Virus record (IMG/VR): IMGVR_UViG_3300025000_000012
Coordinates: 1-62,969 of that record
DNA from: a virus
Length of the DNA stretch: 62,969 bases
Reading direction: 5' to 3' (one strand)
The position numbers were made by a program, and so were the translations under genes. Of this stretch, positions 128 to 62,969 are shown piece by piece (the stretch's first letter is position 1; every line of letters begins with the position of its first letter). The notes beneath the pieces are model-generated. The model saw nothing but the letters and a program-made list of their open reading frames with translations, had not been told where the DNA came from and made no database searches.

Positions 128-3100
128 GCCCAAGGTTGTCAAGCCTAGGGTTGCCAAAGTTGAGAAGCCCGCTAAAGCCGAGACGCCTAAGGTCGTCAAA
201 GCGGAGAAACCCGTTAAAACTGAGAAGCCCAAAATTGAGAAGCCTAAGGTCGCAGCTAAAGCAAAAGCTGTTGAGGAAAAGAAGACTGCTAAAGAGACTA
301 CTAAAGTCTTGAAGCAGAGTAATGACGAGCGCGCAGCCACTGCAGCTGCGAAGGCTACTGCTGATGCGTTAGCTAAAAATGAGTCCCAAGCTAAGAAGGA
401 CGCCGAGAAAGCAAAGGCCCGTGAAGAGCTCAAGGCGCGTATAACCCCTGAAAAATATAATGAGTATCTCTCTCTGGTTGACGAGATTACGAGCTATACT
501 ACTAAGATTAACAGGGCTGCTCAGAAAGGTGACTTCCAAACGGCCAAAGCCTTAGATCAGTCTAGAAAGATAGCTCAGGCTCGTGTAGCAGCTATAAAAA
601 GTGTACAAACGACCGTCACTGATCAGAAAAAAGATACTAATACGATTGATCAGGCCTCTTCGAAAGTTGAGCAAGACTCAAATGTACAGATTCAGAAAGG
701 GCAAGAAAAAGCGAGTGTAAATCAAGGCTCGCAAGGTAGTTCAGCAAAAGATGTAGAGTCTGAGTTGCAGACCAAACTCGGTGACACTTGGACCTCCCTC
801 AAAACGCTCGGAGCAGCTAAGAAACCCGGTGGTGTAACTATAGTTAATACTGTTCCAGAGGCTCTTGAAGCAATAGGCTCTACTGTTTCAAGACGGAGTG
901 CTAAAGATACTACGACTCAAGCGCTGTATAATCCTAACACCGGGTTATCTGCGATAATAGCTAACAATATTGAGGTAGCTGACGCAGAAGGAATACTGCT
1001 TCACGAAGCTAGTGTTCATGCAATAGAGAATTCTACCCTGGATATGGAAGCTCTGGCACTGTTTAATAATAATAGGCCAACTCCATTTATGCAGTACGTG
1101 GAAGATTCACTCCGCGCAGGTGGGCTCCTTGATGAAGATGGTAATGCTACTGACGCTAATGAGGTGCGCGCCTACATAGTTGAGCATGCTATTAACCTCA
1201 GTCCTCAAAAGACTGTTAACCAGAAGTTTTGGCAATGGCTCAGCTATAATCATCCTAGGATCGCCGCGTACTTGAAGAAAGTAGCTGCGGCTCTTGGGTC
1301 ACACTTTAAGAGTCTAGGTGTCAAGATAGACGAGGGACAGTTAAACGAGGGACAGTTAAACGCGGCAGTAGCTAGTCTTGCAAAAGAAGCTAGGGATGCC
1401 CTGGGTAACGCTGTAAAGACTAAAGACGCGCGGGCTGAAGTCCCTGTCGTAGCATCTGTTAAGGGCTATAAGGAGAACGAAGACGGTGTCTTAGTCAAAG
1501 GCGAAGCTCCAGTAAAACCTGAGAACGTAATACCTCTGAGCTCTGTTAAAGCAGAGAAACTCTCTAAGCAAGACGCCGAGGCTCTTAAAGTCCTTAAAAA
1601 CTTATTTCAGAGTAGACATAAGACTCTCGAGGAAGCCGCAGCTGAGGTTATAGATGACTTTGTTATCTCTACGTCAAATCCAGCCATGCGTAAATACTAT
1701 GAGCTTACGCAGCGGATTAGTAGTTATAAGAGAGACAAGAATAACCAGACGTCAACAGTTTTTGATCGGATAGTTAGCTCACCTGAGTTTTACTTCCCTA
1801 AGACTTCAGCGGGTAAAAAGATTCTGCAAGCCGCTGTTGATGACTCCGATATACGGTACCGTGCGCAGAAACAAGTGCTTGGTGATTTTCTGGATAAGGC
1901 GAACTTGATTCTTAAAAAGAAGCCTAAGGTTTACGCCGCAGTTAATAAGTATTTACTTGACACTGATAAAACCGGAGTAGGCTTCAAGCTTCGTAAAAAT
2001 GGTGAGACCTGGGAGGTTAGAGACCGTAAAGATAAAGTCGTCGCTACACATATGGACGAGGGCGCTGCAAATGCAGATCTTGTTAATGCTGAGCAGGAAT
2101 GGCTTAAGACGCAGCTTATATCAAAGGATGCGCGGGATCTGATTCTCGAAGCCCGGCTTCTTACCAACAGAGCTTTCGATATTCTTATTGCGGATATGCG
2201 TAAGCAGATTACTCGAGCTACTGAGAATGGACTTGACGAGCCCACCGCTATGTTCGTAGACGCGGATGGCAAGACTAATGAAGTATCGCTTACCGAGCTC
2301 ATCGCTAATATGGGTGATCTTCGAGGTACCTATTTTCCTCGTGAACGCGTAGCACGAAACTTTCATCTCGTAGCTGAACAAGAGGGTAAGCCTAGTATCC
2401 TCGAAACATTTGATTGGCACTTCGTTGAGAATGAACTTGGCAATAACCGTGTTCAGATGATGAAGCGTGCTTTTAATAACGCAGCTCCTGCTGGCCGACG
2501 ATACCAAGAGTTACTGAAAGCAGGTTACAAGGCTGAGAATATTAATATCAAGCCCGTGACTTCACCGACAGAGCTCTTATTTGACCTTCCAGGTGTTCTT
2601 GCTTCTCTCGACGCGATTTTTAGTTCTGCTACTGAGAAGATGAATATCGACAGTCTCGAAGAGTCTGATAAACTCTGGATGGGTACTGTTGATAAAGCCC
2701 TAGCTCTACGCGTTGCTGATATCTATAAGGCTAAGGGTAACTTTAGCTCTAGGATGTCTCGAGCTGATAAGCTATGGGAAGGGTATGAGCCTGACATGAT
2801 TCGTGCTCTTACAAGCTACGCTTCACGAGTATCTACGGGCGTAGCCAAGAGAACTACAGCTCGTAAAATGCTTGAGGCCCTAACTGGTCGAGGTGTATCC
2901 TGGAAGCAATACCAAGCACAAGCAGAGAAAGCTAAACAGAAGGTGACTTACCAGGATTACTTAGCATATGTTAAGTCTCAACGGGTAAGCCCGACACAGC
3001 AGAAGATGATGTATGAAGACCTGCGTCAGTACATCAAGTACTTCTTATCACCAGATGACGCGCTTGGTAGAGCTATAGGTTACTTTAAAGCTGCTACGGT

Positions 3101-10185: not shown

Positions 10186-11028
10186 ATGTTAGTTGAAAAA
10201 GCCATAGAATTATACATGGAGTATCTCAGAAGTAATACTCGACCAAATACTGTCAGGGCGTTTTATTATACTCTTAGTAGATTTAAAGCGGTCTTCTCAG
10301 GCCAAGATTTAAATAATGTTAAGGATATTCAGATTATAGAATTTATTCATGATATATCCCCTGATTGTTCTTCTACAACTAAGAATACTAGGGTTAGCGC
10401 TCTTCGTGCATTCTATAACTTTATTAATGAAGTCGCGGATGACGGATTAGTTAATCCATGTATGCGCCCAATTGTACGTAAAATGTTTAAAGTCTCTCGT
10501 GGGTCTTCACCTAAGCTTTTAGATAAGGACTTAATTGATGAAATTATTTTTAGAACTATTAATGAACGTGACCGTTTGATTTTAGAACTTATGGGCCGAG
10601 CTGGAATGCGTGTAGGTGAAGTTCTTAATGTTCGTCCAAGTGATATAGATTCAGACGCCTCAACAATAGCAATCGCTGAGCCTAAGAGTGGCAGAGTTGG
10701 TGAAAAAGTTTTTATTACTAAGAAACTTTGTGGTAAACTTCAATCTTATATAACTAAACGGCCGTCAATCAAAAATAAAATTATTTTTGATATAAGTTAT
10801 TCTACTGCGCATCGTATGGTAAAGCGTTCTGGATTATTGGTTAATTCTAAATTAAGACCTCATGATCTACGAAGACATGCTGCTACACAGGCAAGTAGAA
10901 ATAGTATCCCTTTAGAAATAGTTTCAAAGGTTATTTTGAGACACGCAGATATATCAACAACCCAGCGATACTTAGGTACTGTTGACCCAAGTGAAGCGAG
11001 CCGTTGGATTGAACATTTAAATAGGTGA
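10186..11028 (+). CDS. int: Tyrosine recombinase / integrase (XerC/XerD-like, 280 aa)
   Basis: Catalytic signature GRAGMRVGE (Arg), HDLRRHAAT (HxxR), LRHADISTTQRYL (His...Tyr). N-terminal SAM-like core-binding domain. AAGGAG 7 nt upstream. About 33% G+C in a 60-nt sample counted by hand. Confidence 0.9.
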   Translation: MLVEKAIELYMEYLRSNTRPNTVRAFYYTLSRFKAVFSGQDLNNVKDIQIIEFIHDISPDCSSTTKNTRVSALRAFYNFINEVADDGLVNPCMRPIVRKMFKVSRGSSPKLLDKDLIDEIIFRTINERDRLILELMGRAGMRVGEVLNVRPSDIDSDASTIAIAEPKSGRVGEKVFITKKLCGKLQSYITKRPSIKNKIIFDISYSTAHRMVKRSGLLVNSKLRPHDLRRHAATQASRNSIPLEIVSKVILRHADISTTQRYLGTVDPSEASRWIEHLNR

Positions 11029-14438: not shown

Positions 14439-14471
14439 CTCCTGGTCACCTCCTACGGACCTTTATAATAC

Positions 14472-14576
14472 CCTTTCTTAAAGTGTACATTTGACTATAG
14501 CCGATCGAAATAAAAAAGTGTATAAACGTATTCGAGACTTTCGAAGAGTCAACCTCGATATGTTTATACACTTTTT
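14472..14576. repeat. Copy A of a ~105-bp inverted-repeat-bounded intergenic element, at the convergent junction (likely bidirectional terminator region)
   Basis: Co-linear without gaps with copy B (18843-18947). Identical blocks cctttcttaaagtgta (1-16), ataaacgtattcga (51-64) and tatgtttatacacttt (88-103). Extra internal arm AAAAAGTGTATAAAC (14512-) pairs with GTTTATACACTTTTT (14562-14576). Confidence 0.85.
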
Positions 14577-14603: not shown

Positions 14604-14885
14604 TTATATTTCAACTCGGTTAATGAGATACTTAATCTGCTCCAGGGTAACATGCATTTCATTTAAGGGCTCCGCGGTGCTTCTAAAGTACTCAGAACTT
14701 GGCGCAAAAAATGGTGGCGACGCTTCAGAGCATACTCGAGGATCTTCAACGATCAAGCAGCTTACGCGGGCCTGCACGAGGTCACGAATTTCAAAAATAA
14801 ATCCACGCATCTCATTTAACTTACGTACAAACTGCGCGCCTTCAGTATCTTTAGGATTTAACATTGGTCTACCTGCTTCTAACAT
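14604..14885 (-). CDS. Hypothetical protein (93 aa)
   Basis: GGAG 6 nt before the ATG. Last gene of the leftward block. Preferred over the antisense ORF 14623..14898 by strand context. Confidence 0.5.
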   Translation of the reverse strand: MLEAGRPMLNPKDTEGAQFVRKLNEMRGFIFEIRDLVQARVSCLIVEDPRVCSEASPPFFAPSSEYFRSTAEPLNEMHVTLEQIKYLINRVEI

Positions 14886-15327
14886 ACCATTCTCCTAGTA
14901 GCTCAGGTTCAATAAATACTACGGTTAGTTTTGCGTCCTCAATTAACTCAACAACAAACTCTTGATTCCATGATGACTCAGGGTCTATTGGTAGAGTCAC
15001 TATAGTCTTGATCCTCCCATTTTGAATTATGTTTCCGAGACACTGCGTACACGGTAAGCAGGGATAGATATAAATAGTATCCCCTATACCGTCAGCAGAA
15101 ATAAGACAGTTCACTTCAGCATGAACCATCAACAAGTTCTTCAGCTCTTTATCAGCCAATCTATATGGCGTGTCCTCTATACCTGTAGGAAACCCATTAT
15201 AGCCAACGCCTCGTATTCTATGACCCTCGGTGATGACTGCTCCGACTTTCTTATTGGGGTCCTTTGACCAGAGAGATACATGCCGAGCGAGCTGAAGATA
15301 TCGGACCCTCCATTTATCAATTTGCAT
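14869..15327 (-). CDS. dCMP (deoxycytidylate) deaminase
   Basis: Zinc-binding signature HAEVNCL ... PCLPCTQC. 152 aa. Confidence 0.9.
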   Translation of the reverse strand: MQIDKWRVRYLQLARHVSLWSKDPNKKVGAVITEGHRIRGVGYNGFPTGIEDTPYRLADKELKNLLMVHAEVNCLISADGIGDTIYIYPCLPCTQCLGNIIQNGRIKTIVTLPIDPESSWNQEFVVELIEDAKLTVVFIEPELLGEWYVRSR

Positions 15328-15328
15328 A

Positions 15329-16090
15329 TCAGTCTACTCGCATCATCGCTTCAAGCTCATCAATATCCTTCTGGGTAAGTCCTTCACCAGTCTCCGCAGC
15401 TTTCAGAAACGTAAATAACTTGGTCTTCCAGTCAAGATCTCGGTTATCCCAGTCAAGGAATAATCTAACTGCTTGCATAGGTGGAAGCCAGTATCCCTTC
15501 CTGGAGTACTTCATACATCGCAGAGTAGAGGATACCGGACAATGTATATTCTTTAACCGCAGGATTCTACGCGGCTCATCGTGCTCGAAGTCCGCGTCAA
15601 CTAACGCAGACTCTGCGGTCACTAACCCGCAGCGTACCACAGTAAAGTCAAAGTTTTCCAAGATATCCATCAAACTGCCAGTAGCGACGATTTTGCCCTC
15701 TTTTACTGGTTTAATAATCTGGATAACTGGCGTCTGAAACAGAGGACTCTCTGGGTCATCCACTTTTTTAAACGTTACAGCCATTGTGTTTTCGTGGACT
15801 ACGGAGACATTGTACTTCTTTTCCATCAACTCACGGAACTTGGTGAAGCTATCCTCATCTGGAAAATAAACATCGACATCGCCCGCGCGTTCTACGGACT
15901 TACTAGTTGAGCACATATACCGCACGTACCCTCCGCAGATAAGCCCGCCATACTCGCGTACAAGTGTAAACAACGTAGATATCTCAGTAAAGCCGCGGTA
16001 GACTTTGCTCGGTACAAAACCATCTTTTGATATATACGAGGGTTTCTTCTTTTCTTCCAAGTCGGTAGCATCGTCGATAAGATCTTCCAT
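15329..16090 (-). CDS. Nucleotidyltransferase-fold (Pol-beta superfamily) protein (253 aa)
   Basis: GGLICGGYVRYMCS...AGDVDVYF fits the G[GS]-x(n)-DxD head motif of Pol-beta NTases and resembles the GGxVRD..DxD head of CCA-adding/poly(A) polymerases. Inference from the motif only. Confidence 0.5.
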   Translation of the reverse strand: MEDLIDDATDLEEKKKPSYISKDGFVPSKVYRGFTEISTLFTLVREYGGLICGGYVRYMCSTSKSVERAGDVDVYFPDEDSFTKFRELMEKKYNVSVVHENTMAVTFKKVDDPESPLFQTPVIQIIKPVKEGKIVATGSLMDILENFDFTVVRCGLVTAESALVDADFEHDEPRRILRLKNIHCPVSSTLRCMKYSRKGYWLPPMQAVRLFLDWDNRDLDWKTKLFTFLKAAETGEGLTQKDIDELEAMMRVD

Positions 16091-18633: not shown

Positions 18634-18834
18634 TCAATCTCCCTCAGGTACAGAGTCTTTAGCCTCAAACCATACACCACGAGACCCACAGTAGGCCTCG
18701 CTAAATCGCATATCCTTGGCGTCCTTATTATTAGTGAACACATGGCCGGAGATTAGGTCACTATGTCCTCTTGATTGCTGACAGGACCCAAACTCCACTC
18801 GATAATGTTTACATCTTCTGCAGGCGGGTATCAT
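18634..18834 (-). CDS. Cys-rich small protein (66 aa)
   Basis: ATG preceded by AAGGAGA embedded in the TACACTTTAAGAAAGGAG motif. CRRC...C...CG pattern. Confidence 0.65.
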   Translation of the reverse strand: MIPACRRCKHYRVEFGSCQQSRGHSDLISGHVFTNNKDAKDMRFSEAYCGSRGVWFEAKDSVPEGD

Positions 18835-18842
18835 TTACACTC

Positions 18843-18947
18843 TCCTTTCTTAAAGTGTATAATTGCTCTATACGAGACAATTATTTTGTCTAGATAAACG
18901 TATTCGAAGCGTATGAAAATCAGGCCGGCCTATGTTTATACACTTTC
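18843..18947. repeat. Copy B of the ~105-bp inverted-repeat-bounded intergenic element
   Basis: Arms AAAGTGTATAA (18851-18861) and TTATACACTTT (18936-18946) are a perfect 11-bp inverted repeat. Central ATAAACGTATTCGA is identical to copy A. The left arm carries the SD of gene 18634..18834. Confidence 0.85.
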
Positions 18948-20874: not shown

Positions 20875-21819
20875 CTATTTCTTGTAACGTTGTCCTATCC
20901 ACCCTTTAGCTTGTAACTGCGCGTCAGGGCACCATTCAATATTACACAGATGACGATTAAAAGTATCCATCGTTGTATCAGTGATATCTTCGTTTTTAAT
21001 TATCCCCATAGCTTCATCATGCACACTTGCCACTAACTCTACTTCAGGCATAAAGTCTCTGATGTTCTGCATTCCCTGTCCCATTACTTCTCTGGCAGAG
21101 CCTTGAGTCGCGTTCTCAGTTATACGGCCGGGGGTTAATCTTAAACGTACCCACTTTTTGGTGTAAGGATCTGTACCCATGTGGGTGACTGTAGGTACTG
21201 GTCCCATGTATTCGTAATCAGGGATAAGAAAATCTTTAACCTGCGGTTTCATGTAGTAGATACATTTACCGGAGGGTAACTTCATCGCTAGCCAGAGGAT
21301 ACCGTTAACCTTGGCTAAGCCGAAGGTAATCCTTTTATATGTACTCTGTTGACCAGAGATGACCGTACGAGCTGCGGCGTTCTTAAGTCCTGACCACAGC
21401 TCTTCGATCAGGAAGTACTTGGCGCGGTAAGACTTAATAGCGATGCTTGACTCATCTAGGGAAACCTCCATGCCAAACTGAACTTTAGCGGTCTCTTTAA
21501 ACTTCTTAGCACCCATTTGGTAACCCGCCCCGAGGACGATTACCTTACCCATTTGGCGTTGTGCCGCACAAACTGGGTCTTCAGCTTTATAGCCTTCATA
21601 AATATCTTTATAAGACTTGTTATACCGAGCAGCAGCCATTGTAATATACTGGTCAATGCCGTTCTTAAAATCGTTGAGAGTCTCGTAGTCTTCTGCCAGC
21701 CACGCAAGGATTCTGTTTTCAATACCCGAGTAGTCTGAGACGATGAGGGAGCAGCCGTTCGGTGCTTTGATCATAGGCCGTATTAAAGCCTTTGCTGTGC
21801 CAATCGGATTTTCAATCAT
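20875..21819 (-). CDS. Family-A DNA polymerase, C-terminal part (palm/fingers, 314 aa)
   Basis: Motif A SDYSGIENRILAWLA, motif B RQMGKVIVLGAGYQMG, motif C VASVHDEAM. ATG overlaps the upstream stop (ATGA) with GGAGG 7 nt upstream. Confidence 0.9.
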   Translation of the reverse strand: MIENPIGTAKALIRPMIKAPNGCSLIVSDYSGIENRILAWLAEDYETLNDFKNGIDQYITMAAARYNKSYKDIYEGYKAEDPVCAAQRQMGKVIVLGAGYQMGAKKFKETAKVQFGMEVSLDESSIAIKSYRAKYFLIEELWSGLKNAAARTVISGQQSTYKRITFGLAKVNGILWLAMKLPSGKCIYYMKPQVKDFLIPDYEYMGPVPTVTHMGTDPYTKKWVRLRLTPGRITENATQGSAREVMGQGMQNIRDFMPEVELVASVHDEAMGIIKNEDITDTTMDTFNRHLCNIEWCPDAQLQAKGWIGQRYKK

Positions 21820-22880
21820 ATTACCGCCTCCAGAAACTCTTGTATGCGCTCTTCAGGATTAGGGACTGATGCTCTAGGTAAGTTATGAACCTGGAATCCT
21901 CGGCCCGCCCATCTACCAGGGCCTGCGCCATGGAACTGTACATTGTCATGTACCCAGTATTGATCACCAACTTTACGTGCTTGAGCTGCAAGCTTTGTGA
22001 ACTTAGCAGTCGAGGATCGTCCAAGCTCTTGCCGCATCTCAAGAACCTCTCGAACATTCTCTGGACAACTAGGATCGTCAAGACCTGCTTGTACAGCAGC
22101 GGCATCAAGAGTATCCATAGGAAATCCGTTTTCACCGCACCATGCTTTAATCTTCTCTAACTGGCCAAGTGTCTTAAACGCGCCACCGCTCTTCTCAGGA
22201 ACACACTCAAGGGCTTTAAGGACATATGTACCCAGATAGTCACGAATAGCTACGATGGCTTTGTAGTCTATGGGCAGCCCGGTTGTATTCATCTCGTACG
22301 TAAGTTCCCAAAGTCTCTGCTCCTTGGGAATAAGAACCTTACGAGGCAGAGTGTAGACAATCTCACGCATAGCCTCGATGTCACGTTTGCAGTACTCATA
22401 AAGCCGGCCGAAGTGTACACCATTAACACCCCAAGGTGTAGGTTGAACCCCTGACTTGGTAGGTACACAGCAGAGCTTTATGAGCTTGAGGCCGTCAGCG
22501 CTCTTAGGCATAGAGATACCAAGAGCTTCACCTGCGTTATGAAGACTAGCAGGTACGCCAAATGTTTGGCACAGCGCCATCGAATCTATAACCTGACCAA
22601 GTGATAGTCGTGGCCAGCACAGCTGCTCGTGGCCGATGAAGTTCCAGATTCTATAGTCAAATGTGGCATTGTGCGCATACACGGGTTGACCAGAGAGTAC
22701 GTGCTCAATTATATCTGGGTGAAGCTCATCTGCAGGAGTGAATACCGACACTGGTTCTTTGTCAAAGGCGTAGCCCATGCAGACGATCTGAGTTGACGGA
22801 TGCGTGGCATAGTTCATGCCACCACGTTTCTTAATATCCACGGCTGAATATGTTTCAAAGTCTACGAAGAGGTCACTCAC
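21816..22880 (-). CDS. Family-A DNA polymerase, N-terminal part (3'-5' exonuclease plus thumb, about 354 aa)
   Basis: ExoI FVDFETYS, ExoII AHNATFDYRIW, ExoIII YCKRDIEAM. Start re-set to GTG 22880 (GGAGGAAG upstream, after the stop of the 22900 gene). Confidence 0.85.
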   Translation of the reverse strand: MSDLFVDFETYSAVDIKKRGGMNYATHPSTQIVCMGYAFDKEPVSVFTPADELHPDIIEHVLSGQPVYAHNATFDYRIWNFIGHEQLCWPRLSLGQVIDSMALCQTFGVPASLHNAGEALGISMPKSADGLKLIKLCCVPTKSGVQPTPWGVNGVHFGRLYEYCKRDIEAMREIVYTLPRKVLIPKEQRLWELTYEMNTTGLPIDYKAIVAIRDYLGTYVLKALECVPEKSGGAFKTLGQLEKIKAWCGENGFPMDTLDAAAVQAGLDDPSCPENVREVLEMRQELGRSSTAKFTKLAAQARKVGDQYWVHDNVQFHGAGPGRWAGRGFQVHNLPRASVPNPEERIQEFLEAVI

Positions 22881-22899
22881 TGTTTCTTCCTCCAGCGGT

Positions 22900-23160
22900 C
22901 TAAATATTCCATGAAGCAATTTCTGTTGGCTTTTCACCTTGAACAACAATAGTCTCAAACATCAGCGCATCACAGATATACTGCATGCATGTTCCAATAG
23001 TTTTGAATTCTACTACTGGATATGGCTTCTGTCTTTCATCCATAGCTTTATATTTTCCAGGGCCCCCGCGTATTCTAAAGGCGCGGCCTTCTCTAATATA
23101 GATGTCCCAATGCCCGGGATTACGATGAATGACTTCGAAACTTAGGGGTGTAGTATTCAT
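22900..23160 (-). CDS. Hypothetical protein (86 aa)
   Basis: ATGA overlap with the upstream gene. No motif recognised. Confidence 0.6.
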   Translation of the reverse strand: MNTTPLSFEVIHRNPGHWDIYIREGRAFRIRGGPGKYKAMDERQKPYPVVEFKTIGTCMQYICDALMFETIVVQGEKPTEIASWNI

Positions 23161-23435
23161 ATCTTTTTCTCCGGCTTATTAGAAATTTCCATCCCATGTT
23201 GAAGTGCTTCAATATATACCACGCAGAAAACTTTCCATAATGGATGTATTTGAATATGCTTGTCTACTTGTGGTCCTACTAATTTCCATACTTCTTCCAT
23301 GTGAATTTCATCCGGGATTTTATCCCATGAATTAATTGGATAATGAGGTACTTTACATGGGCCTATATTTACATGGGTACCTTCTAAAGCTTTTTTCTGA
23401 GCTTTTTGATCTTTATCAAAGCCTAGCTTATTCAT
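23157..23435 (-). CDS. Hypothetical protein (92 aa)
   Basis: ATGA overlap with the upstream gene. No motif recognised. Confidence 0.6.
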   Translation of the reverse strand: MNKLGFDKDQKAQKKALEGTHVNIGPCKVPHYPINSWDKIPDEIHMEEVWKLVGPQVDKHIQIHPLWKVFCVVYIEALQHGMEISNKPEKKI

Positions 23436-23959
23436 ATCTTTCCCTCTCGTTTAAGTCTAAACCAGATTAACGCCAGACTGTTCCAGCAAATCGCAACATC
23501 GTGTGGCATACCAGACTCTGGGTCAATGTTAAACCGGCCCTCGTTAATATGTCGCCAAAAGCCGTCGAGGTACCGTTGCTCTGCGTCCTCAACAAGCATC
23601 CATGACCCTCGGTTATACTTGCCGAAAGGCTTGTTATTCATAGACCCGAGCTTGGCCACCTCTTTAAGTGCGGGTAGAAAATCCTCAAGGACTCCGGCCA
23701 TATACTTACCCTGGTCGAGCTTGTTTTCGTCAGGCGGCATAAAGTCTTTATATGTGTCGTCAAGAGCTGGAAAAATTTTATTAACCGTAGTAGGTTCGGT
23801 ACGCGTAGTATTACAGAATATACAGACATACTGATATTTTTTATTAACGCAGTTATACCTGTACCTGAATATTGCTTTAGGGTTATCGCAGCCCGCGCAG
23901 AAGCCAACAATATCTTCTGTACAAGACTGGTGTGGTAGCTTTTGTACTAGAGGTGGCAT
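23432..23959 (-). CDS. All-alpha NTP pyrophosphohydrolase of the phage dATP/dGTP diphosphohydrolase (DUF5664-like) type with an N-terminal zinc ribbon (175 aa)
   Basis: KLDQGK...FGKYNRGSWM...YLDGFWRHINEG...DPESGMPHDVAICWNSLALIW resembles that family as I recall it. N-terminal CAGC...CIFC. Confidence 0.6.
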   Translation of the reverse strand: MPPLVQKLPHQSCTEDIVGFCAGCDNPKAIFRYRYNCVNKKYQYVCIFCNTTRTEPTTVNKIFPALDDTYKDFMPPDENKLDQGKYMAGVLEDFLPALKEVAKLGSMNNKPFGKYNRGSWMLVEDAEQRYLDGFWRHINEGRFNIDPESGMPHDVAICWNSLALIWFRLKREGKI

Positions 23960-23963
23960 ATTT

Positions 23964-23984
23964 CTCCTTTCTAAAAGTGTATAT
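23964..23984 (-). promoter_or_regulatory. Solo copy of the TACACTTTnAGAAAGGAG motif, directly upstream of the 23959 start codon
   Basis: Minus-strand reading is ATATACACTTTTAGAAAGGAGAAATATG. Same motif as at 18842-18863, 14471-14490, 41314-41332 and 41506-41530. Confidence 0.6.
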
Positions 23985-23995
23985 TTATTGCCATG

Positions 23996-24022
23996 AAAAA
24001 GGACCCTACTCTCGCAGGGCCC
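23996..24022 (-). terminator. Rho-independent terminator after the SSB gene
   Basis: Minus strand reads GGGCCCU-gcgagagu-AGGGUCC (7-bp stem with one G-U pair) followed by UUUUU. Confidence 0.6.
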
Positions 24023-24058
24023 TTCTTATTACGGGATATTACATCAGCTGTGGGCTAC

Positions 24059-24642: not shown

Positions 24643-24671
24643 ATTATTAACGTTGTTGTCCTAGTAGTAAA
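24643..24671 (-). promoter_or_regulatory. Weaker sigma70-type promoter candidate (TTTACT-N17-AATAAT)
   Basis: -35 TTTACT (24671-24666), -10 AATAAT/TAATAA (24648-24643). About 20 nt upstream of the SSB start. Confidence 0.4.
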
Positions 24672-24732: not shown

Positions 24733-25137
24733 TTAAGAGGTGATAGTGGTGGCTAACGCCGGTGTCGATGCTTTCGTATCAGGAAATACCTCCTTATGTT
24801 CACCACTGGCCATACGCTTCAGGTTGTTCGCTAAGACCCATTCAAAGCGGGCCTGAAGGTCAAATGCGTCAAAGTCAAAACACTTAGCGATGTTGATTAA
24901 AAAGAAAAAACAGTCTATAATCTCGCGGCTTATATTATCCCGATCTATAGACCCCGTTTTCCATGAAGCAAATGGCCAGGAGGAGGCAAGTTCGCCGACT
25001 TCTACACTAAGAGCTAAGACACACTCATTAGCGTACTGTAGCTTCTTTTCTGGTGTTAAGTCTTGAAACACAACACCCCGAAGGTTAGCTTGTGCTACAA
25101 CTTGGCCCATCATTTTATAGAGTGTAAGCTCATTCAT
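24733..25137 (-). CDS. MazG / dimeric-dUTPase-like all-alpha NTP pyrophosphohydrolase (134 aa)
   Basis: LSVEVGELASS (ExxE) and REIIDCFFFLINIA (E..D) helices. Confidence 0.6.
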   Translation of the reverse strand: MNELTLYKMMGQVVAQANLRGVVFQDLTPEKKLQYANECVLALSVEVGELASSWPFASWKTGSIDRDNISREIIDCFFFLINIAKCFDFDAFDLQARFEWVLANNLKRMASGEHKEVFPDTKASTPALATTITS

Positions 25138-25959: not shown

Positions 25960-26631
25960 TCAGGGATTCCAGGATTGAGCTTCACATTGCAAGAAGCCTT
26001 GTTTGCAAGTATCCATGTAGCACTGAGGCCCTACATGGCAAAACAACTCAGGAAAATGCCCGTGTACCAGTGATAGTACCCGCTCAGCAAACACCTGCAT
26101 CTCGTCTACATTACGATTACAGGTACGCTGGCGCAAGAAGAACATGAGGTTACGGGCATCTATGGTCCATAAATAATTAACCGCAGCAGCGTTAGGTAAA
26201 ACCTGACGGGCTTCTTCCCGAGGAACATTGAGCTTAAGCAGATCACCGTATGCTTTGTATGTAGCATCTAAGGCGCTCTGCATTATAATTTGTGCAGTGG
26301 GCGATACATTGCCGGTGACGCATGGGTAGTCTGAGTAATCTTGGTAGTGCTGAGACCCACTTGTCGGGGACCCAGTTCGTTGACGGGTGATTTGTGCGAG
26401 AAATGACCTTGATACACCCTGGATAAGGAACGTATAAACTACGTGCTCGAACAAGGATGTGTGTTCGGCGTTGATTAAGAACTTAGCTTTTGCGGCGGTG
26501 AACTTTGGAATCTCCGCATCTGCTTGGGCATTCATGGTAATACTCTGAGCAAGAGCAACCATCTCCGCTGGATAAGGAGTTGCTTGCATGAGCTCGATAC
26601 TCATTTTGTCGTACGACTGGACGTTTGGCAT
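25960..26631 (-). CDS. thyX: Flavin-dependent thymidylate synthase ThyX homologue with an atypical signature (223 aa)
   Basis: EHTSLFEHVVYTFLIQGVSRSFLAQITRQRTGSPTSGSQHY aligns to the ThyX RHRxxSxxxxSxRY signature, but reads RQR...S....SQHY. Start re-set to ATG 26631 (AGGAGG 7 nt upstream). Confidence 0.75.
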   Translation of the reverse strand: MPNVQSYDKMSIELMQATPYPAEMVALAQSITMNAQADAEIPKFTAAKAKFLINAEHTSLFEHVVYTFLIQGVSRSFLAQITRQRTGSPTSGSQHYQDYSDYPCVTGNVSPTAQIIMQSALDATYKAYGDLLKLNVPREEARQVLPNAAAVNYLWTIDARNLMFFLRQRTCNRNVDEMQVFAERVLSLVHGHFPELFCHVGPQCYMDTCKQGFLQCEAQSWNP

Positions 26632-26650
26632 TCTACTTCCTCCTACTAGG

Positions 26651-26684
26651 AAAACCCCTTTCACGATTGCTCGCGAAAGGGGTT
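26651..26684 (-). terminator. Rho-independent terminator
   Basis: Minus strand reads ACCCCUUUC-gcgagcaaucgu-GAAAGGGGU followed by UUUCC. Lies between the wHTH gene and thyX. Confidence 0.6.
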
Positions 26685-26717: not shown

Positions 26718-27260
26718 TTACAGGAGCTCGTCGTCTCCGTCAGGATCTGTATCGTCTTCAGGAACATCTGCAACGACATTGGGCTCGGGCAACTTGGCAG
26801 CAGCGGCCTCGTTACGCTTGATCTTGATGCGCAGCAGGGTAGCATTAGCGTCGGCCTCTTCCTTGAGCTCGACAAGCTCTTCGTCATCCGGGTCTTCAGC
26901 GATATCAGCATTAACCTGGTCAACTTTGGCCTGAGCCTTGGCGTACGCAGCACGCTGGGTCTTGAGAGTCTTGGCAAGTGCGTCGGCCTGCTCTTGCGGA
27001 GTCTTGGCGCTGGTAGAAGCTTTGGCTTTGCGATTGGCAAGGACAACTTCCTGTTGGGCATTATACTCGTCCTCAGTACAAAAGCGGAGCTTCTTGTTCT
27101 CATCAGCGACGATGAAGTGGCCCATCCACCGCAGATACGTCATCTGAGATGAAACACTCGCATCTTTGACTTCCAGCTTGGCAGCGATTTCGGCTTTGGT
27201 ATACTCACCAGTCTCGATCAGTTCCTTAACTTGTTCACGGCGGTTAACTTTCTCACTCAT
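26718..27260 (-). CDS. Winged-HTH DNA-binding protein with a C-terminal coiled-coil/acidic region (180 aa)
   Basis: EQVKELIETGEYTKAEIAAKLEVKDASVSSQMTYLRWMG is paralogous to EQVVNLIRTNGRISIKDIGEAIGISERNVSSQLSYLRKDG in 40512..40808. First gene after the 27.3-kb promoter. Confidence 0.7.
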   Translation of the reverse strand: MSEKVNRREQVKELIETGEYTKAEIAAKLEVKDASVSSQMTYLRWMGHFIVADENKKLRFCTEDEYNAQQEVVLANRKAKASTSAKTPQEQADALAKTLKTQRAAYAKAQAKVDQVNADIAEDPDDEELVELKEEADANATLLRIKIKRNEAAAAKLPEPNVVADVPEDDTDPDGDDELL

Positions 27261-27327
27261 GGTCGTTCCTCCAGATTATTGTGTGGTTGTGTAATTAGTG
27301 AGGGTCTTCCTCACTTTCGTATAACTT

Positions 27328-27774: not shown

Positions 27775-27834
27775 TTAACACCTCCTTTTACATTGTATAA
27801 GCCACGTAGAAAAGCCCGATCAGTATTACAGCCG

Positions 27835-31350: not shown

Positions 31351-31410
31351 AGAACCTCCGCGTTATGGTGTTTAGTGTTCGTGAGATTAACTTCTCACTC
31401 TTTATAATTA

Positions 31411-38754: not shown

Positions 38755-38811
38755 CGCCTCCTACAGCGCAGGGTATTCACTCACAGTGAGGATCACTCAC
38801 TTTCAATCGAT

Positions 38812-39756: not shown

Positions 39757-39966
39757 ATGAATATACCTACCTGGTTATTAGCAGAAGTAGATAAACTACG
39801 TGGACAATTTCCAGATATTAATTATACTGATGCAGTACCACTAGAACAAAGCGATATTGAGTTATTTGTAATTCACGTGCATAACGACTTTAAAGAGTAC
39901 ATCATTATACTACGAAACAATACCAACTATGACACTTGGATAGATGTTAAAATTGTCGAAATGTAA
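39757..39966 (+). CDS. Hypothetical early protein (69 aa)
   Basis: GGAG 8 nt before the ATG. Only rightward ORF in the control region, driven by the 39.7-kb promoter. Confidence 0.6.
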   Translation: MNIPTWLLAEVDKLRGQFPDINYTDAVPLEQSDIELFVIHVHNDFKEYIIILRNNTNYDTWIDVKIVEM

Positions 39967-40022
39967 TGTAATGTTACATCATGTAACATCATGTAACATG
40001 ATGTAGCATGATGTAGCATGAT
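39961..40022. repeat. Six tandem 10-bp units, each a near-palindrome ATGT(A/T)ACAT
   Basis: ATGTAATGTA|ATGTTACATC|ATGTAACATC|ATGTAACATG|ATGTAGCATG|ATGTAGCATG|AT. Begins at the stop codon of 39757..39966. Confidence 0.9.
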
Positions 40023-40511: not shown

Positions 40512-40808
40512 TCATTCCTCTTTTTCCTCATAAATCCGGCCCTTTGAATCCTTTCCAAACTTCAAACCATCCTTACGAAGATATGACAACTGACTCGACA
40601 CATTGCGCTCACTAATGCCGATCGCTTCGCCAATATCTTTGATGCTAATCCGACCATTTGTCCTTATCAGATTGACGACTTGCTCTTTCCGACCTTCACC
40701 TTTCTCGCCGACTTTCTTGACCAGCTCTTCGCGCTCCGCCTTCAAAGCCGCAATCTCTTCAAGCAGCAGTTCCATTTCCGATTTTGCACTCTCGTTTTCT
40801 TTCTTCAT
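40512..40808 (-). CDS. Winged-HTH DNA-binding protein with an N-terminal coiled coil (98 aa), candidate regulator
   Basis: ELLLEEIAALKAEREELVKK, then GRISIKDIGEAIGISERNVSSQLSYLRKDG. Paralogous to the N-terminus of 26718..27260. Confidence 0.7.
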   Translation of the reverse strand: MKKENESAKSEMELLLEEIAALKAEREELVKKVGEKGEGRKEQVVNLIRTNGRISIKDIGEAIGISERNVSSQLSYLRKDGLKFGKDSKGRIYEEKEE

Positions 40809-40942: not shown

Positions 40943-41075
40943 GTGGTCGCTACGCTCCCATTTAATATCCGTTCACTTCGTTCACTCTATAACATATATT
41001 CATCGCTACGCTCTTCATTCTAGTGGTCGCGCTGCTCCCATTAATAAATCGTTCACGCTGTTCACTTAATAACAT
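40943..41075. repeat. Two 53-bp imperfect direct repeats, period 80 bp
   Basis: GTGGTCGCTACGCTCCCATTTAATATCCGTTCACTTCGTTCACTCTATAACAT (40943-40995) versus GTGGTCGCGCTGCTCCCATTAATAAATCGTTCACGCTGTTCACTTAATAACAT (41023-41075). TCGCTrCGCTC and GTTCAC sub-repeats. Confidence 0.85.
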
Positions 41076-41228: not shown

Positions 41229-41333
41229 AGACCTCTCAATACACTTTGTGTACAGCTTCTCTGAGTCATTACTCTCGTGAAATCTGGAATCCCTTAACTC
41301 GCCTGTACACATTTAGAAAGGGCTACACTGAAT
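41229..41333 (+). repeat. Two degenerate direct repeats: GAATCCCTTA followed by the TACAC(T/A)TT motif
   Basis: agaatcccttagacctctcaatacactttgtg (41229-) and ggaatcccttaactcgcctgtacacatttagaaaggg (41297-41333). Confidence 0.7.
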
Positions 41334-41414: not shown

Positions 41415-41530
41415 CTCTCTAGAAAGTGTATAACAGCCCTTCTGCTCTCATTTCATCAAGTCCGAGTACAAACGTATACCTAAAATTTTCGGTCAGTCTA
41501 AGGCTCGTTTATACACTTTCAGAAAGGGCC
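41415..41530. repeat. Copy D of the ~105-bp inverted-repeat-bounded element, upstream of the late operon
   Basis: Arms AAAGTGTATAAC (41423-) and GTTTATACACTTT (41507-41519), central ACAAACGTAT. The right arm continues CAGAAAGGGCC (full motif, plus orientation). Confidence 0.8.
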
Positions 41531-41582
41531 ACCTCCTATCTCTCTGGTCAAACGGGTTTGGTATAAATTTTAAATAAGTCGG

Positions 41583-41611
41583 TTTACTTTTCAGCTTAAC
41601 TAGGGTATAAT
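41583..41611 (+). promoter_or_regulatory. sigma70-type promoter TTTACT-N17-TATAAT
   Basis: -35 at 41583-41588, -10 at 41606-41611. About 55 nt upstream of the 41666 gene. Confidence 0.7.
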
Positions 41612-42163: not shown

Positions 42164-42252
42164 CCAATACGCTTTGACCTAGCGCCTGCAACGCGAAAAG
42201 GACTCCTCCACTCCCTGGTCAAAGTTTTTCGGAGAATATCTTAGGAGAAGAT

Positions 42253-43107
42253 ATGAAAACAGTAGAAGAGAAACAAGCGAACAACACAGCAAGCAGATTA
42301 TATTATGCTGAAATGAGTGCTGAGAAAAAGGCACGACGAATGGAGGCGCAGAGAATTTATCGGCAGAACCCGGTAAATCGAGAAAAAGCAAGAGAAGCCT
42401 GTAGAAAGGCTAGACTAGACCCCGAGAAGCGTGCCAAATACAACAATTGTACTAAGGCTTATAATACCAAGACTAGGCTTGACCCAGAAGTTCGGACACA
42501 ACAAAATGAAGCTAGCCGAATAGCTCGAGCTCTTGATAGGTTGGACCCGGAAAAGTGTGAAAAGTTTAATGAAGCGAGTAGATTGAGTACAGCGAAAGCC
42601 CGGTTAACCCCACAAGGTAAACATAAATCCAGTATGTCTAGTATCAAAAGTCGGTACTGCCTTTCTGAAGAGGATTTTCGGGACCTGATGGATGCACAAA
42701 AGGGGTGCTGCGCGATTTGTGGAACCGATTTTGGTGAGCTGTTTAGAAGAGCCTCAGTTGATCATTGTCATATAACTGGAAAAATAAGAAAACTGTTATG
42801 TAATAAGTGTAATACCTCAGTCGGACAAATAGAGTTTCTTAATCCTGAACACGCGATAGAGTACTTAGAAAAACCGGATACCCAGATACTGTATAATACA
42901 AGTTCTGCGCAGCAATATAAAAAGACACACGACGCGCATTGTGAATTATGCGGGCGTACTGAAAATTTAGTCATAGATCATAATCATTCTACTGGAAACA
43001 TACGAGGTATTCTGTGTAGTACTTGTAATAACGCACTTGGCGCGGTAGAGTCCCACATGTTTTCTGCATACGTTCAGTACGCACGAGGCGGCAATTGTGC
43101 GGTTTGA
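42253..43107 (+). CDS. Endonuclease VII (HNH-superfamily) protein with two nuclease cores (284 aa)
   Basis: CCAICG...VDHCHITGKIRKLLCNKCNTSVG and CELCG...IDHNHSTGNIRGILCSTCNNALG. N-terminal ~21-aa repeats RLDPEKRAKYN / RLDPEVRTQQNEASR / RLDPEKCEKFNEASR. Confidence 0.85.
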   Translation: MKTVEEKQANNTASRLYYAEMSAEKKARRMEAQRIYRQNPVNREKAREACRKARLDPEKRAKYNNCTKAYNTKTRLDPEVRTQQNEASRIARALDRLDPEKCEKFNEASRLSTAKARLTPQGKHKSSMSSIKSRYCLSEEDFRDLMDAQKGCCAICGTDFGELFRRASVDHCHITGKIRKLLCNKCNTSVGQIEFLNPEHAIEYLEKPDTQILYNTSSAQQYKKTHDAHCELCGRTENLVIDHNHSTGNIRGILCSTCNNALGAVESHMFSAYVQYARGGNCAV

Positions 43108-60760: not shown

Positions 60761-62969
60761 TGGCAAAACCTTTTGACTTGCTGGAAGAAGAGACAACTTC
60801 TGTAAACAAACCTTATGATCTTCTGGAAGGTACTGAAAGTACTACGACAGATCCGACATTAGGCGGTATAACTGATACTCCTGTTGAAGGTGGCTTTGTA
60901 GCCTCTGCTAAGCAGTCCGTAGGCTCGACGATTAAAGGCATTGGACAAGCTGCTGCAGATTATATTCCAGGAGTAGAACAAGATAATCCTCTGACCTCTT
61001 ATGGTCAAGAAGTAATTGAAGCGAATCCTACAAAGATTCAAAAGCTGTCAGACGTTCCCGAGAATCCACTTACTACTGTAACTGAAGCAACGGGCGGCTC
61101 TGTTCCTCCTTTAGCTGGTATGATGGGTGTCCGGGCTCTTGGCGCGGGTATTACCGCTGTAGCTCCGCTCACAGGTCCCGCTGCTCCTGTAGTAGCTGGG
61201 ATCGGCGCATTCACCTCCTGGGCAGGCCCCGCTATTATCGCAGCACTTCCGTCCTATAGCAGCATCCGTGATAAGCAAATCTTTAAAGACCCTGATGCGC
61301 AGGAAGCCGCCGCGTCTAAATTCAAGGCTCTTCTTGGCGCTGGTGTAGTCGGCGCTATTGAAGTAGCCTTCGGTCCACAAGAGTGGGCCCTCGCTGCGAT
61401 GACTAAAGAGGGCCGTAAGGCCCTTGCTAAGAAGATCGAGAAGCTCGGTCTTGGTCAATCGTTTGTCCATACAGTAGGAACCTCCGCTGCTATTGAGGGA
61501 GCTGAAGAGCTTGTACAGAACCCAGTTGAGCAACTCGCCGCAGGTGATAACCCACTCACTGAAGAGAGTCTCATGGAGACAGCTCTTGGCGGTGTTATGG
61601 GTGTAGCCGGTGGCGGTGTCATGGGTGGAGTTACACACGTTCTTCTTCCTAAGAGCAAGACTAAGGGAGATCCCTCTGAAGCGGTCCTCTCGCATATCGA
61701 GAAACAGAAGCCTACTGCTCTGCAGCTCACAGCTCTTAAGAACTCACCTGAGCAGTTGAAGAGAGTAGGACTCACGCCCGCGCACATAGACTCTCTCCTG
61801 GCTAAGCATGATAGTGGGACCGTTGAGACTGCACAATTCCAGTCCCTCTTAGACTCCGCACCCAACGATACTATACGCGCAGGTCTACTTGCTACTGCAG
61901 CAGGTGCTAAACACCTCTCAATCGAGAACGCCGAGACTATACGTAAGACCGCAGAAGCTAAAGCAAAAGAGCTTTCACACGCTAATGCTTTAACTTTAGC
62001 TGAGTCTCGGCGTACCGAACTCGCTGCTAAAATCGATCTTACACCTGACGAGGCCGTTCAGCTTACTCTCCTTAATAAAGCTGGCGTAGACCCAATAAAA
62101 CTCGGCCGCGCACTCAACAAGACTATAACAGAGGTCCCAGATTCTGCTAAGCCTGTTCCTCCGCCGAGTACTGACCTTTTACACTCAGACGCCAAGACTC
62201 TTATTGATGCTCGTGCTAATGAGCTTGCTAACAAGAAGTTCAGAACAACTAGCGAGAAGCATGAGCTTCTTAAGCTCGGCAAGATTCAGTCCGGTGGGTA
62301 TAGGATTGGCGATGTAGCAAAGACTCTTGGTCGTACGGTCCTTAAAGATCCTAAGGTCGCGACTCCTGTTACTGAGACTCCTGTTGTACCTAAGAATTAC
62401 TTAACCGCACAGCCGGGTGACATAATTACGCTATACCGCGGTGAGAACTCAGAGAATACTAAAGACGGTGAATGGTGGACTACTGATAAAGCTAAAGCAG
62501 AACGGTACGGTGTAGTAACGGAAGTATCGCTTCCTGCTGAAGTAGCCGCAGCTCATGCGGCGATGGGACATCATGGTCCAGACGAGTATGTCTTCTCAGG
62601 TAAACGCCCTGCTGAACTCGTCAATACACAGACTACTGCTACTCCTGAAGACATTGAAGCGCAGATCGCGGAGCAAGAAGCACCCGCTCCCGAGTTTGAT
62701 CTTCTTGCTAATGAAGCTGGATCTGAGGTCAATGACATTATGTATGACCTCGCTGATCAAGCCGTCGATACGCAGGATCAAGCGGATACCCGTGCTCGAG
62801 CTCAGAGATTCAAGACTCTCCAAGCTGCTGTACCTAACAACACCCCCTCCGCCTCTGCTGAAGTAGTACGCGCACCGCAGGGGGTTACTTCTACTGAGAC
62901 CCCGACTCTTAAAGCTGCTAAGGCTAAAGTAGCAAAGAATAAAAAAGCCACAGCACCTAAAGTCGCTAA
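60760..62969 (+). CDS. Giant virion/ejection (polyvalent-type) protein, N-terminal 736 codons (continues at 3..4490)
   Basis: ATG 60760. I translated the frame by eye to the window end and found no stop. Gly/Ala-rich hydrophobic segments (GMMGVRALGAGITAVAPLTGPAAPVVAGIGAF) and a compact YRG...WWTTD...DEY module at 62421-62601. Absent from the ORF track because it has no stop in the window. Confidence 0.8.
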   Translation, partial: MAKPFDLLEEETTSVNKPYDLLEGTESTTTDPTLGGITDTPVEGGFVASAKQSVGSTIKGIGQAAADYIPGVEQDNPLTSYGQEVIEANPTKIQKLSDVPENPLTTVTEATGGSVPPLAGMMGVRALGAGITAVAPLTGPAAPVVAGIGAFTSWAGPAIIAALPSYSSIRDKQIFKDPDAQEAAASKFKALLGAGVVGAIEVAFGPQEWALAAMTKEGRKALAKKIEKLGLGQSFVHTVGTSAAIEGAEELVQNPVEQLAAGDNPLTEESLMETALGGVMGVAGGGVMGGVTHVLLPKSKTKGDPSEAVLSHIEKQKPTALQLTALKNSPEQLKRVGLTPAHIDSLLAKHDSGTVETAQFQSLLDSAPNDTIRAGLLATAAGAKHLSIENAETIRKTAEAKAKELSHANALTLAESRRTELAAKIDLTPDEAVQLTLLNKAGVDPIKLGRALNKTITEVPDSAKPVPPPSTDLLHSDAKTLIDARANELANKKFRTTSEKHELLKLGKIQSGGYRIGDVAKTLGRTVLKDPKVATPVTETPVVPKNYLTAQPGDIITLYRGENSENTKDGEWWTTDKAKAERYGVVTEVSLPAEVAAAHAAMGHHGPDEYVFSGKRPAELVNTQTTATPEDIEAQIAEQEAPAPEFDLLANEAGSEVNDIMYDLADQAVDTQDQADTRARAQRFKTLQAAVPNNTPSASAEVVRAPQGVTSTETPTLKAAKAKVAKNKKATAPKVA
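62843..62969. repeat. Terminal overlap, an exact copy of 1-127
   Basis: See the feature at 1-127. Confidence 0.95.

Follow-up and report, generated by a model that had tools for sequence, protein, structure and literature searches.

What an oriented DNA motif does in a phage that has no visible gene for the polymerase it seems to call for is the question raised by the 62,969-nucleotide (nt) stretch of viral DNA analyzed here (IMG/VR record IMGVR_UViG_3300025000_000012, positions 1 to 62,969; hereafter the window). The motif, TRTACACTTTNAGAAAGG, is 18-20 nt long, and a preliminary description of the sequence had likened it to the promoters of single-subunit RNA polymerases (RNAPs). We found that it is real, conserved across a phage family, and regulatory, and the reading that fits it best, which we hold with a probability of about one half on the basis of sequence, is that it constitutes a second, factor-dependent class of phage promoters devoid of a -35 element. 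The regulatory motif is new and the kind of element is familiar, hence the claim is a modest one, with the mechanism only proposed. The ends of the window form a 127-bp direct repeat (1-127 and 62843-62969), which indicates a circular assembly and a complete phage genome of 62,842 bp, on which five full copies of the motif, termed A to E, were found:

14470..14489, minus strand: copy A, TGTACACTTTAAGAAAGGGT; 29.2 bits; at the end of the leftward gene cluster, with no open reading frame (ORF) behind it, facing the convergent plus-strand genes.
18842..18861, minus strand: copy B, TATACACTTTAAGAAAGGAG; 31.0 bits; Shine-Dalgarno (SD) sequence of the ATG at 18834 (gene of 66 amino acids (aa), 18634-18834); syntenic copy in the relative L108, TATACGCTTTAAGAAAGGAG.
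23964..23983, minus strand: copy D, TATACACTTTTAGAAAGGAG; 31.7 bits; its AGGAG is the SD of the ATG at 23959; syntenic copies in the relatives L108, L110, and L111.
41304..41323, plus strand: copy E, TGTACACATTTAGAAAGGGC; 26.5 bits; belongs to a 67-bp direct repeat as its second unit, the first one carrying the palindromic form.
41510..41529, plus strand: copy C, TATACACTTTCAGAAAGGGC; 29.7 bits; followed by a class I (host-type) promoter after 54 nt and by the TerS-like gene after 156 nt.

With up to three mismatches allowed, TACACTTTNAGAAAGGRG matched the window six times against 0.39 matches expected, a count reached in 0/100 shuffles, and the 16-nt core TACAC[T/A]TTNAGAAAGG was present exactly at five places (14472-14487, 18844-18859, and 23966-23981 on the minus strand, 41306-41321 and 41512-41527 on the plus strand). 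A position weight matrix (PWM) of 20 columns and 23 bits, built from 16 copies, scored the five full copies at 26.5-31.7 bits, the next match (683-702, plus strand) at 18.8 bits, and all others at 10.3 bits or less, the maximum over 20 shuffles being 16.5 bits; since the matrix contains the window's own sites, their scores are partly circular, but those of the match at 683 and of the matches in relatives are not. All five full copies are intergenic and run in the same direction as the downstream genes. Two of them, B and D, abut a start codon and supply its SD, as previously noted, with AGGAG 7-8 nt ahead of the ATG (18834 and 23959), and no start codon follows copies A, C, and E, which bears out the earlier view that the motif is more than a ribosome-binding site. 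Moreover, AGAAAGG is kept also in the copies that have no ORF behind them, and it is therefore not merely an SD. Two positions had to be corrected: copy E, formerly placed at 41314-41332, starts 10 nt further left, and a variant formerly located at about 27806-27785, found instead near 27781-27801, is not supported, as it has no CTTT and does not figure in the top 30 PWM matches. As for the match at 683-702, TGTACAGATTCAGAAAGGGC lies within the giant ORF discussed below and in the same direction; scoring above all shuffles and well below the full copies, it may be an internal sixth copy or a chance occurrence. Directly after copy C, at 41529-41538 (plus strand), stands CCACCTCCT, which is identical to the anti-Shine-Dalgarno end of 16S rRNA.

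Conservation was assessed in four near-complete relatives (L108 with L114, L110 with L116, L111/L112 with L115, and L113 with L117), to which shorter loci (L053 and L083-L100) were added; their proteins are 40-80% identical to those of the window. When up to two mismatches to the 16-nt core were allowed, twelve relative loci (181 kb) yielded 11 matches against 0.5 expected, each of them (11/11) on the gene strand. Taking window and relatives together, 16/16 full copies follow the gene direction, and this strict orientation excludes a purely symmetric DNA-binding role. The preliminary description had tied its interpretation to conservation in related phages, and syntenic copies were indeed found at sites D, B, A, and C, at a protein identity as low as 40-75%. 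L108 preserves sites B and A in the form TACGCTTT..AGAAAGG, and its counterpart of copy A stands before a 97-aa gene. Site C is kept in L053, L084, L086, L087, and L115, 140-200 nt upstream of the TerS-like gene and always with a class I promoter in between; at the L053 and L086 copies, no start codon was found at SD distance. In the window, L108, L110, and L111, site D has the same order, namely the SSB gene, a hairpin terminator, 12-17 non-conserved nt, the motif (T[AT]TACACTTT[TA][AT]G[ATG][AG]AGG across the four phages), and the ATG of a dGTPase-like gene. Conservation among these orthologues starts exactly at TRTAC and the preceding 12-17 nt differ completely; in L113, the terminator is kept and the motif is degenerate. 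More distant relatives, L091 (8832-9113) and L093 (1889-2300), carry 4-5 tandem units with T[AT]TACTCTTTTTGAAGC upstream of the TerS-like gene, a diverged, co-varying form of the motif in which both blocks have changed. An exact-motif scan of IMG/VR gave 82 single chance matches and one true relative, L053, and a metagenome scan with the DNA polymerase half gave one short contig.

The context that decided our weighing is site D, where an essential replication operon begins within 40 nt of a conserved strong terminator. The elements concerned, together with the class I promoter next to copy C, are the following:

23996..24027, minus strand: intrinsic terminator of the SSB gene, a hairpin of -22 kcal/mol (z -5.6) with a U-run behind it; 12 nt separate it from copy D, which lies downstream.
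24643..24671, minus strand: class I promoter of the SSB gene; 11/12; last class I promoter in the leftward cluster.
41583..41611, plus strand: class I promoter; 12/12; between copy C and the TerS-like gene; kept in L053, L084, L115, and L116.

Class I elements are ordinary two-block host-type promoters, TTTACT-N17-TATAAT, with six 12/12 matches in the window (4523 and 39667 and 41583 on the plus strand, 27356, 31439, and 35774 on the minus strand) and two 11/12 matches (38840 and 24671, both minus), all eight being intergenic and in gene direction, with the same consensus in every relative examined. The coexistence of the motif with classical sigma70-type promoters, reported earlier, is thus upheld by six perfect matches. 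Hairpins equivalent to the SSB terminator were found in L108, L110, L111, and L113; across the five phages they range from -15 to -29 kcal/mol, and in 4/5 the motif comes next. From the SSB terminator to the end of the cluster, no TTTACT-N17-TATAAT was found in the window, L110, L111, or L113, and none within the replication cluster of L108, where one 11/12 match lies past site A. In the window, this stretch holds only motif copies D, B, and A, and the genes downstream of the terminator encode a dGTPase-like protein, DNA polymerase, a VRR-NUC protein, ligase, helicase, and dCMP deaminase. Because these replication genes have no class I promoter, and because the motif is the sole conserved sequence between the terminator and the genes, we infer that it is the motif that restarts transcription there.

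Some further observations concern the class I promoters themselves. Their -35 hexamer is TTTACT, not TTGACA, and is often extended to TTTACTTTTGC, which may say something about the host. A leader hairpin, GTGAG-N6-8-CTCAC, lies at about +10 after three of them (~27300-27325, ~31385-31410, and ~38785-38810, all on the minus strand), and 'gtgag' leaders of a similar kind follow class I promoters in L110 and L113.

According to the reading that we favor, the motif copies would be compact promoters without a -35 element, with D, B, and A serving replication operons, and with E and C acting in tandem with a host-type promoter before the packaging and structural operon. TACACT would be a -10-like hexamer that retains the critical A-11 and T-7: 15/16 full copies have TACACT or TACGCT, whose second base is A and whose sixth is T, and direct reading of the sequences 16-18 bp upstream of TACACT disclosed no consistent -35 hexamer. 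Transcription would start about 7 nt downstream of TACACT, within the purine run of AGAAAGG, such that the mRNAs of B and D would begin just upstream of their own SD, and the transcripts of A, C, and E would begin with an SD-like AAAGGG. The fact that AAAGG is kept even where no ORF follows suggests that this tail is part of the start region or of the RNA 5' end; a function as an SD-like 5' stabilizer is speculation. Since there is neither a -35 element nor a recognizable phage RNAP or sigma factor, host RNAP would presumably be brought to the motif by a phage-encoded factor, for which two winged-helix proteins are the best candidates. Of the options originally offered, a middle or late promoter read by a modified host RNAP fits the motif best, and the RNA-level roles fail at the ORF-less copies and at site D, as detailed below.

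In the search for such a factor, every ORF of at least 45 aa was scanned against Pfam and/or PHROGs (small ORFs as concatenates), and selected ORFs also against NCBIfam. No RNAP or sigma family scored above threshold in any window ORF in these databases, the giant protein included, so that the places to which the preliminary description had pointed as possible homes of a polymerase, sigma factor, or activator gave nothing above threshold, and its statement that no T7-like RNAP is present stands. Neither a gp55- or gp33-like protein nor a homologue of the MotA/AsiA, Ogr, or Mor/C activators was detected in the window. The non-structural genes common to all four syntenic relatives code mostly for replication and nucleotide enzymes; those without an enzymatic or replication assignment are two winged-helix paralogues plus a pair of small, weakly conserved ORFs, one of 74 aa (a zinc-ribbon protein) and one of 142 aa. 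As candidates for binding the motif, the paralogues are listed here:

26718..27260, minus strand: 180-aa winged-helix protein, candidate trans-acting factor; 56-71% identity in all four syntenic relatives.
40512..40808, minus strand: 98-aa paralogue with an N-terminal coiled coil and a winged helix (HTH_24, 6.9e-07), candidate trans-acting factor; divergent from the TerS-like gene, beside the motif arrays.

The 180-aa protein is as conserved in the phage family as the DNA polymerase, and its gene has its own perfect class I promoter. In its confident structural model (predicted local distance difference test score 88.7), a winged helix is accompanied by three long helices and by an acidic, disordered tail with ..DDELL at its end, and the nearest folds, with weak E-values, are DNA binders of the PadR, MarR, and BirA types. 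The 98-aa protein gave the sole sigma-like signal of the genome, a sub-threshold similarity to region 4 of extracytoplasmic-function (ECF) sigma factors (22.8 bits vs a cut-off of 42.9), as well as a weak match to lambda O-like DNA-binding domains. Both paralogues share the recognition helix ..VSSQ[LM][ST]YLR... It is tempting to picture the 180-aa family as a sigma-like or appropriator-type specificity factor that would guide host RNAP to 18-nt promoters lacking a -35 element (TRTACACTTTNAGAAAGG), with the coiled-coil paralogue using the same core as an operator, and we regard this particular assignment as improbable as it stands.

The motif is accompanied by shorter elements. Its first 13 nt, TRTACACTTTNAG, form an asymmetric core, to which the full gene-oriented copies add AAAGG(R), and this 13-nt core also occurs without the AAAGG tail and on the opposite strand. 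In the window, these elements are:

14515..14524, minus strand: additional core in sense orientation, TATACACTTT; copy A lies 35 bp downstream.
14522..14535, minus strand: central element, TCGAATACGTTTAT; midpoint between the antisense core and copy A.
14565..14574, plus strand: antisense core, TATACACTTT; 5' end 76 bp from that of copy A.
18894..18907, minus strand: central element, TCGAATACGTTTAT; midpoint between the antisense core and copy B; 14-mer identical to 14522-14535.
18937..18946, plus strand: antisense core, TATACACTTT(CTAGA); 5' end 76 bp from that of copy B.
41238..41254, plus strand: palindromic variant, AATACACTTTGTGTACA; the single such unit in the window, of the form that builds arrays in relatives.
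41423..41432, minus strand: antisense core, TATACACTTT(CTAGA); 5' end 78 bp from that of copy C.

The distance of 76-78 bp between the 5' end of the antisense core and that of the full copy holds in window modules A, B, and C and in L053, L084, L086, and L087, and by inspection also in L115. L108 carries related ACGTTTATA elements, and L111 has antisense-core arrays in two intergenic modules. All relatives possess 2-10 units of AAAATATTTCGG-N15-20-TACACTTTGTGTA between the 98-aa gene and the TerS-like gene, in which the core is extended to a 5-7 bp palindrome with a TTT center. On folding, hairpins arose only from the palindromic variants; the full copies reached -0.6 to -2.9 kcal/mol with differing structures and no conserved hairpin. 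Since the full motif has no conserved fold and the palindromes fold modestly, the shared feature is sequence, not structure.

Several of these findings weigh against a second promoter class. The antisense cores of the window (at 14565, 18937, and 41432) and the arrays in L111 look more like protein-binding sites, of which a fixed spacing of 76-78 bp is typical, and the same resemblance is borne by the palindromic arrays of 2-10 copies. Copy E reads TACACA and has lost T-7, the leaders predicted for B and D would measure only about 8-12 nt, and the structural operon is already served by the perfect class I promoter 54 nt downstream of copy C. Finally, in L084 the recognition helix of the 98-aa paralogue has diverged and the DNA core has not; co-variation of the winged-helix recognition helix with the core was thus not seen, for which reason the assignment of the factor to the winged-helix proteins is only a lead. 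The antisense cores, the arrays, and the 76-78 bp spacing are compatible with a factor-dependent promoter, if the same protein reads all cores, and they are equally the basis of the strongest alternative.

In this alternative, one or both of the winged-helix paralogues (98 aa and/or 180 aa) would occupy the asymmetric core and thereby block or modulate host RNAP, as the repressor of mycobacteriophage L5 does at its 'stoperators', dispersed 13-bp sites with an orientation bias, and the arrays beside the 98-aa gene would act as autoregulatory operators. The alternative would account for a core that is asymmetric, about 13 nt long, intergenic near gene starts, and orientation-biased, that occurs in both orientations at 76-78 bp, and that forms 7-3-7 palindrome arrays adjoining the divergent 98-aa gene in all relatives. 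The two conserved paralogues with their common recognition helix, the PadR, MarR, and BirA repressors among the nearest folds of the 180-aa model, and the presence of a recombinase speak for it as well:

10186-11028, plus strand: tyrosine recombinase (Phage_integrase, 1.4e-20), among tail and lysis genes; integration, dimer resolution, and inversion are all conceivable roles.

However, no core overlaps a class I promoter, a roadblock placed directly after the strong terminator of site D would be redundant and would leave essential replication genes promoterless, and only about five full sites compare with 20-30 in L5. Furthermore, there is no sign of lysogeny: a scan of 185,579 GTDB species genomes for the exact peptide pattern QMTYLRWM of the 180-aa family confirmed no relative inside a bacterial chromosome and located one on an 8.9-kb contig of a metagenome-assembled genome. 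A 1.0-Mb ENA contig, at whose end the early genes of a relative (L118, 1-12264) stand beside cytochrome and kinase genes, was rejected as evidence for a prophage, since its G+C content passes from 38% through 62% to 47% across the join and the assembly is probably chimeric. Because operators would leave the replication operon without a promoter and would imply a lysogeny for which no chromosomal relative was confirmed, we ranked them below promoters, as a possible but rather doubtful explanation.

We also considered that the motif might act in RNA, either as a 5' leader (a translational enhancer or ribosome-binding site resembling the T7 gene 10 leader, CTTTAAGAAGGAGA), as an SD-like 5' stabilizer, or as a processing site, with the transcripts starting further upstream. 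Its orientation, which strictly follows the genes, would agree with this, as would the SD in copies B and D and the near identity of copy B with the T7 gene 10 ribosome-binding region; in addition, a -10-like TATAGT, TATAGA, or TATAAC lies 6-7 nt before copies A and B and the L053 counterpart of copy C, and in A, C, and L053 a core-like hexamer precedes at a distance of 17 bp. At site D, however, there is no upstream conservation in four phages, and the terminator ends 12-17 nt before the motif, such that RNA could reach it only by read-through. Copies A, C, and E have no ORF, the same core is found on the antisense strand and in DNA palindromes, and neither a conserved fold nor an Rfam match was obtained for the motif, all of which makes an RNA-level element decidedly unlikely.

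Still less likely is that the motif derives from replication-origin iterons or from terminase (pac/cos) sites, the dispersed copies being by-products. The presence in every relative of 2-10 core-containing units with periods of 53-92 bp between the primase and the TerS-like gene, the many metagenome contigs that end at the arrays, and the weak match of the 98-aa protein to lambda O-like domains could be understood in this way, but this would leave unexplained both the AAAGG extension, which is conserved, and the single copies that follow gene orientation at syntenic positions behind the SSB terminator and ahead of other replication genes.

The giant protein mentioned in the preliminary description is present and is longer than it looked, as its ORF runs from 60760 across the junction to 4490 and encodes 2190 aa once the circle is closed ('1393-aa' before). 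It matched no family and contains no DxDxD, DxDGD, or Rx3Kx6-8YG (T7 motif B) pattern, and comparison with PDB sequences, alone and as a 21-sequence profile, gave no match; its last ~920 aa form a C-terminal module common to hundreds of proteins of 2000-5600 aa, which has no known fold or family. By this sequence evidence alone, the protein was ruled against as an RNAP. In the region 62283-62554 (residues ~530-600), ...ITLYRGENSENTKDGEWWTTD...HHGPDEYVFSG... resembles by eye the R-S-E motif of ADP-ribosyltransferases, for which no profile support was obtained. The least credible of all explanations is a promoter of an unrecognized phage RNAP, be it SP6/T7-like or a virion RNAP within the 2190-aa protein as in N4 and crAss-like phages, for although the motif is long (~23 bits), asymmetric, strictly oriented, and partly similar to the SP6 promoter, ACACTATAGAAG, although the palindromic form of the relatives has a 5-7 bp stem and a 3-nt loop like N4 early promoters, and although a giant protein without assigned function exists, no ORF matches an RNAP family, the giant protein has neither catalytic motifs nor a PDB match and shares its C-terminal module with many other large proteins, the shared non-structural genes without assignment come down to the two winged-helix proteins and the 74- and 142-aa ORFs, nothing is conserved upstream of TRTAC, and the full motif does not fold.

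Other readings were tried and rejected. A sigma70 -10 element on the opposite strand failed because only copy B gives TTTACA-18-TATAAT, the other copies losing T-7 or the -35. The motif as a -35 element or MotA box with a -10 further downstream lacks a consistent hexamer and would remove the start codons of B and D from the transcripts. A sigma54 interpretation of TGGCAA upstream of D was discarded since the invariant GC at -12 is missing and TGGCA is absent in 2/4 phages. Finally, an inverton, with inverted cores flanking a promoter and a tyrosine recombinase to flip it, is contradicted by the 56-58 bp between cores, which is too short, and by the same orientation in every assembly.

With respect to the genome as a whole, identical copies of the window were found in groundwater metagenomes; ERZ28564294 and SRR1658472 stem from samples of the Rifle groundwater site. 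Among the products of the genome are a portal of the P22 type, a capsid protein, and a large terminase, joined by a VapE-type primase, a family A DNA polymerase (two ORFs), a ligase, an SNF2 helicase, a DUF2800 nuclease, an Enc34-type SSB, ThyX, a dUTPase, and a dCMP deaminase. Rightward genes extend from 41666 across the junction to ~14438 and leftward genes from 38592 to ~14604, and the region between them, 38.6-41.66 kb, has few ORFs, a low G+C content, and many repeats. Megablast returned no DNA-level match to the window among 50,697 deposited phages, and the closest cultured phages do not exceed 30% identity in the portal and 49% in TerL, so that the phage family has no literature of its own; a full-text literature search for the core sequence returned unrelated primers only. 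In metagenomes, its TerL relatives number in the hundreds. Rfam and tRNA scans of the window gave no match.

Additional features of the genome deserve a record. Two ORFs with a 4-nt overlap (20875-21819 and 21816-22958, both on the minus strand) share between them the family A DNA polymerase, for which L110, L111, and L113 have a single ORF of 659-952 aa. An ORF with an endonuclease VII domain (42253-43107, plus strand), preceded by a hairpin and a T-run at ~42172-42240, separates the TerS-like gene from TerL, which adjoin or overlap each other in most relatives, and the ORF is probably a homing-endonuclease-type insertion. The nucleotide-metabolism genes at 14869-15327, 23432-23959, 24733-25137, and 25960-26664 (all on the minus strand) encode a dCMP deaminase, a protein with a dGTP diphosphohydrolase N-domain, dUTPase_2, and ThyX, respectively, and this set, together with a Gad2-domain protein at 15329-16090, may indicate modified DNA. 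In the ORF-poor region, 39961-40022 and 40943-41075 contain dense overlapping inverted repeats (ATGTTACATCATGTAACAT...) and two 53-nt direct repeats (GTGGTCGC..GCTCCCATT..CGTTCAC..GTTCACT), which bear no relation to the motif and might serve as an origin or as operators.

If the motif is a promoter, then the replication genes, and perhaps also the late genes, of a large family of uncultured phages are driven by promoters that ought to escape recognition by unaided host RNAP. This would point to an undescribed factor that redirects host RNAP, as the family encodes no known polymerase, sigma factor, or activator, and if the winged-helix proteins did act in a sigma-like way, they would represent a new means by which a phage without its own RNAP or sigma factor builds a second transcription class. 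The motif and the TTTACT-N17-TATAAT class can moreover be used as markers that delimit transcription units in uncultured genomes.

It is useful to compare the motif with known systems. An N4-type hairpin promoter differs from it in that the full motif has no common hairpin and no virion RNAP was detected in the window. In promoters of single-subunit RNAPs such as those of T7 and SP6, a block of about 23 bp is conserved from -17 to +6. Like these, the motif is strictly oriented, long, and asymmetric, would include the start region, and shows the partial match ACACT.T.AGAA; nevertheless, the resemblance to which the earlier reading had appealed proved superficial, since conservation begins only at TRTAC, about 10-12 nt before the likely start, with no conserved -17 to -9 block, the alignment with SP6 needs an indel, the copies are less uniform, and the window has no RNAP gene. 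Copy B, ACTTTAAGAAAGGAGA, also recalls the T7 gene 10 leader with its epsilon enhancer, which reads ACTTTAAGAAGGAGA, but three of the five window copies have no ORF and the core is found on the other strand as well. The 'stoperators' of L5 are likewise asymmetric, about 13 nt long, dispersed in short intergenic regions, oriented with transcription, and accompanied by a small DNA-binding protein; here, in contrast, there are only about five full sites and no evident lysogeny, one of the sites stands behind a terminator, at a place that calls for a promoter, and binding by the candidate protein is putative. The late promoters of phage T4, TATAAATA, are read by host core RNAP with gp55 and gp33. 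The window motif is different and longer (TRTACACTTTNAGAAAGG), its core also occurs antisense and in palindromes, and no gp55- or gp33-like protein accompanies it, yet the architecture fits: both are short, lack a -35, precede non-early genes, and stand beside sigma70 promoters, and the window motif would likewise place a -10-region element a few nt upstream of its putative start. With the activator-dependent promoters of T4 (MotA/AsiA), P2 (Ogr), and Mu (Mor/C), finally, the motif has no activator homologue in common, its candidates being winged-helix proteins of an uncharacterized family, but it would share with them the use of host RNAP, the lack of a -35 element, and the dependence on a phage-encoded DNA-binding factor, and in the divergent modules a central element does lie about 52 bp from each putative start.

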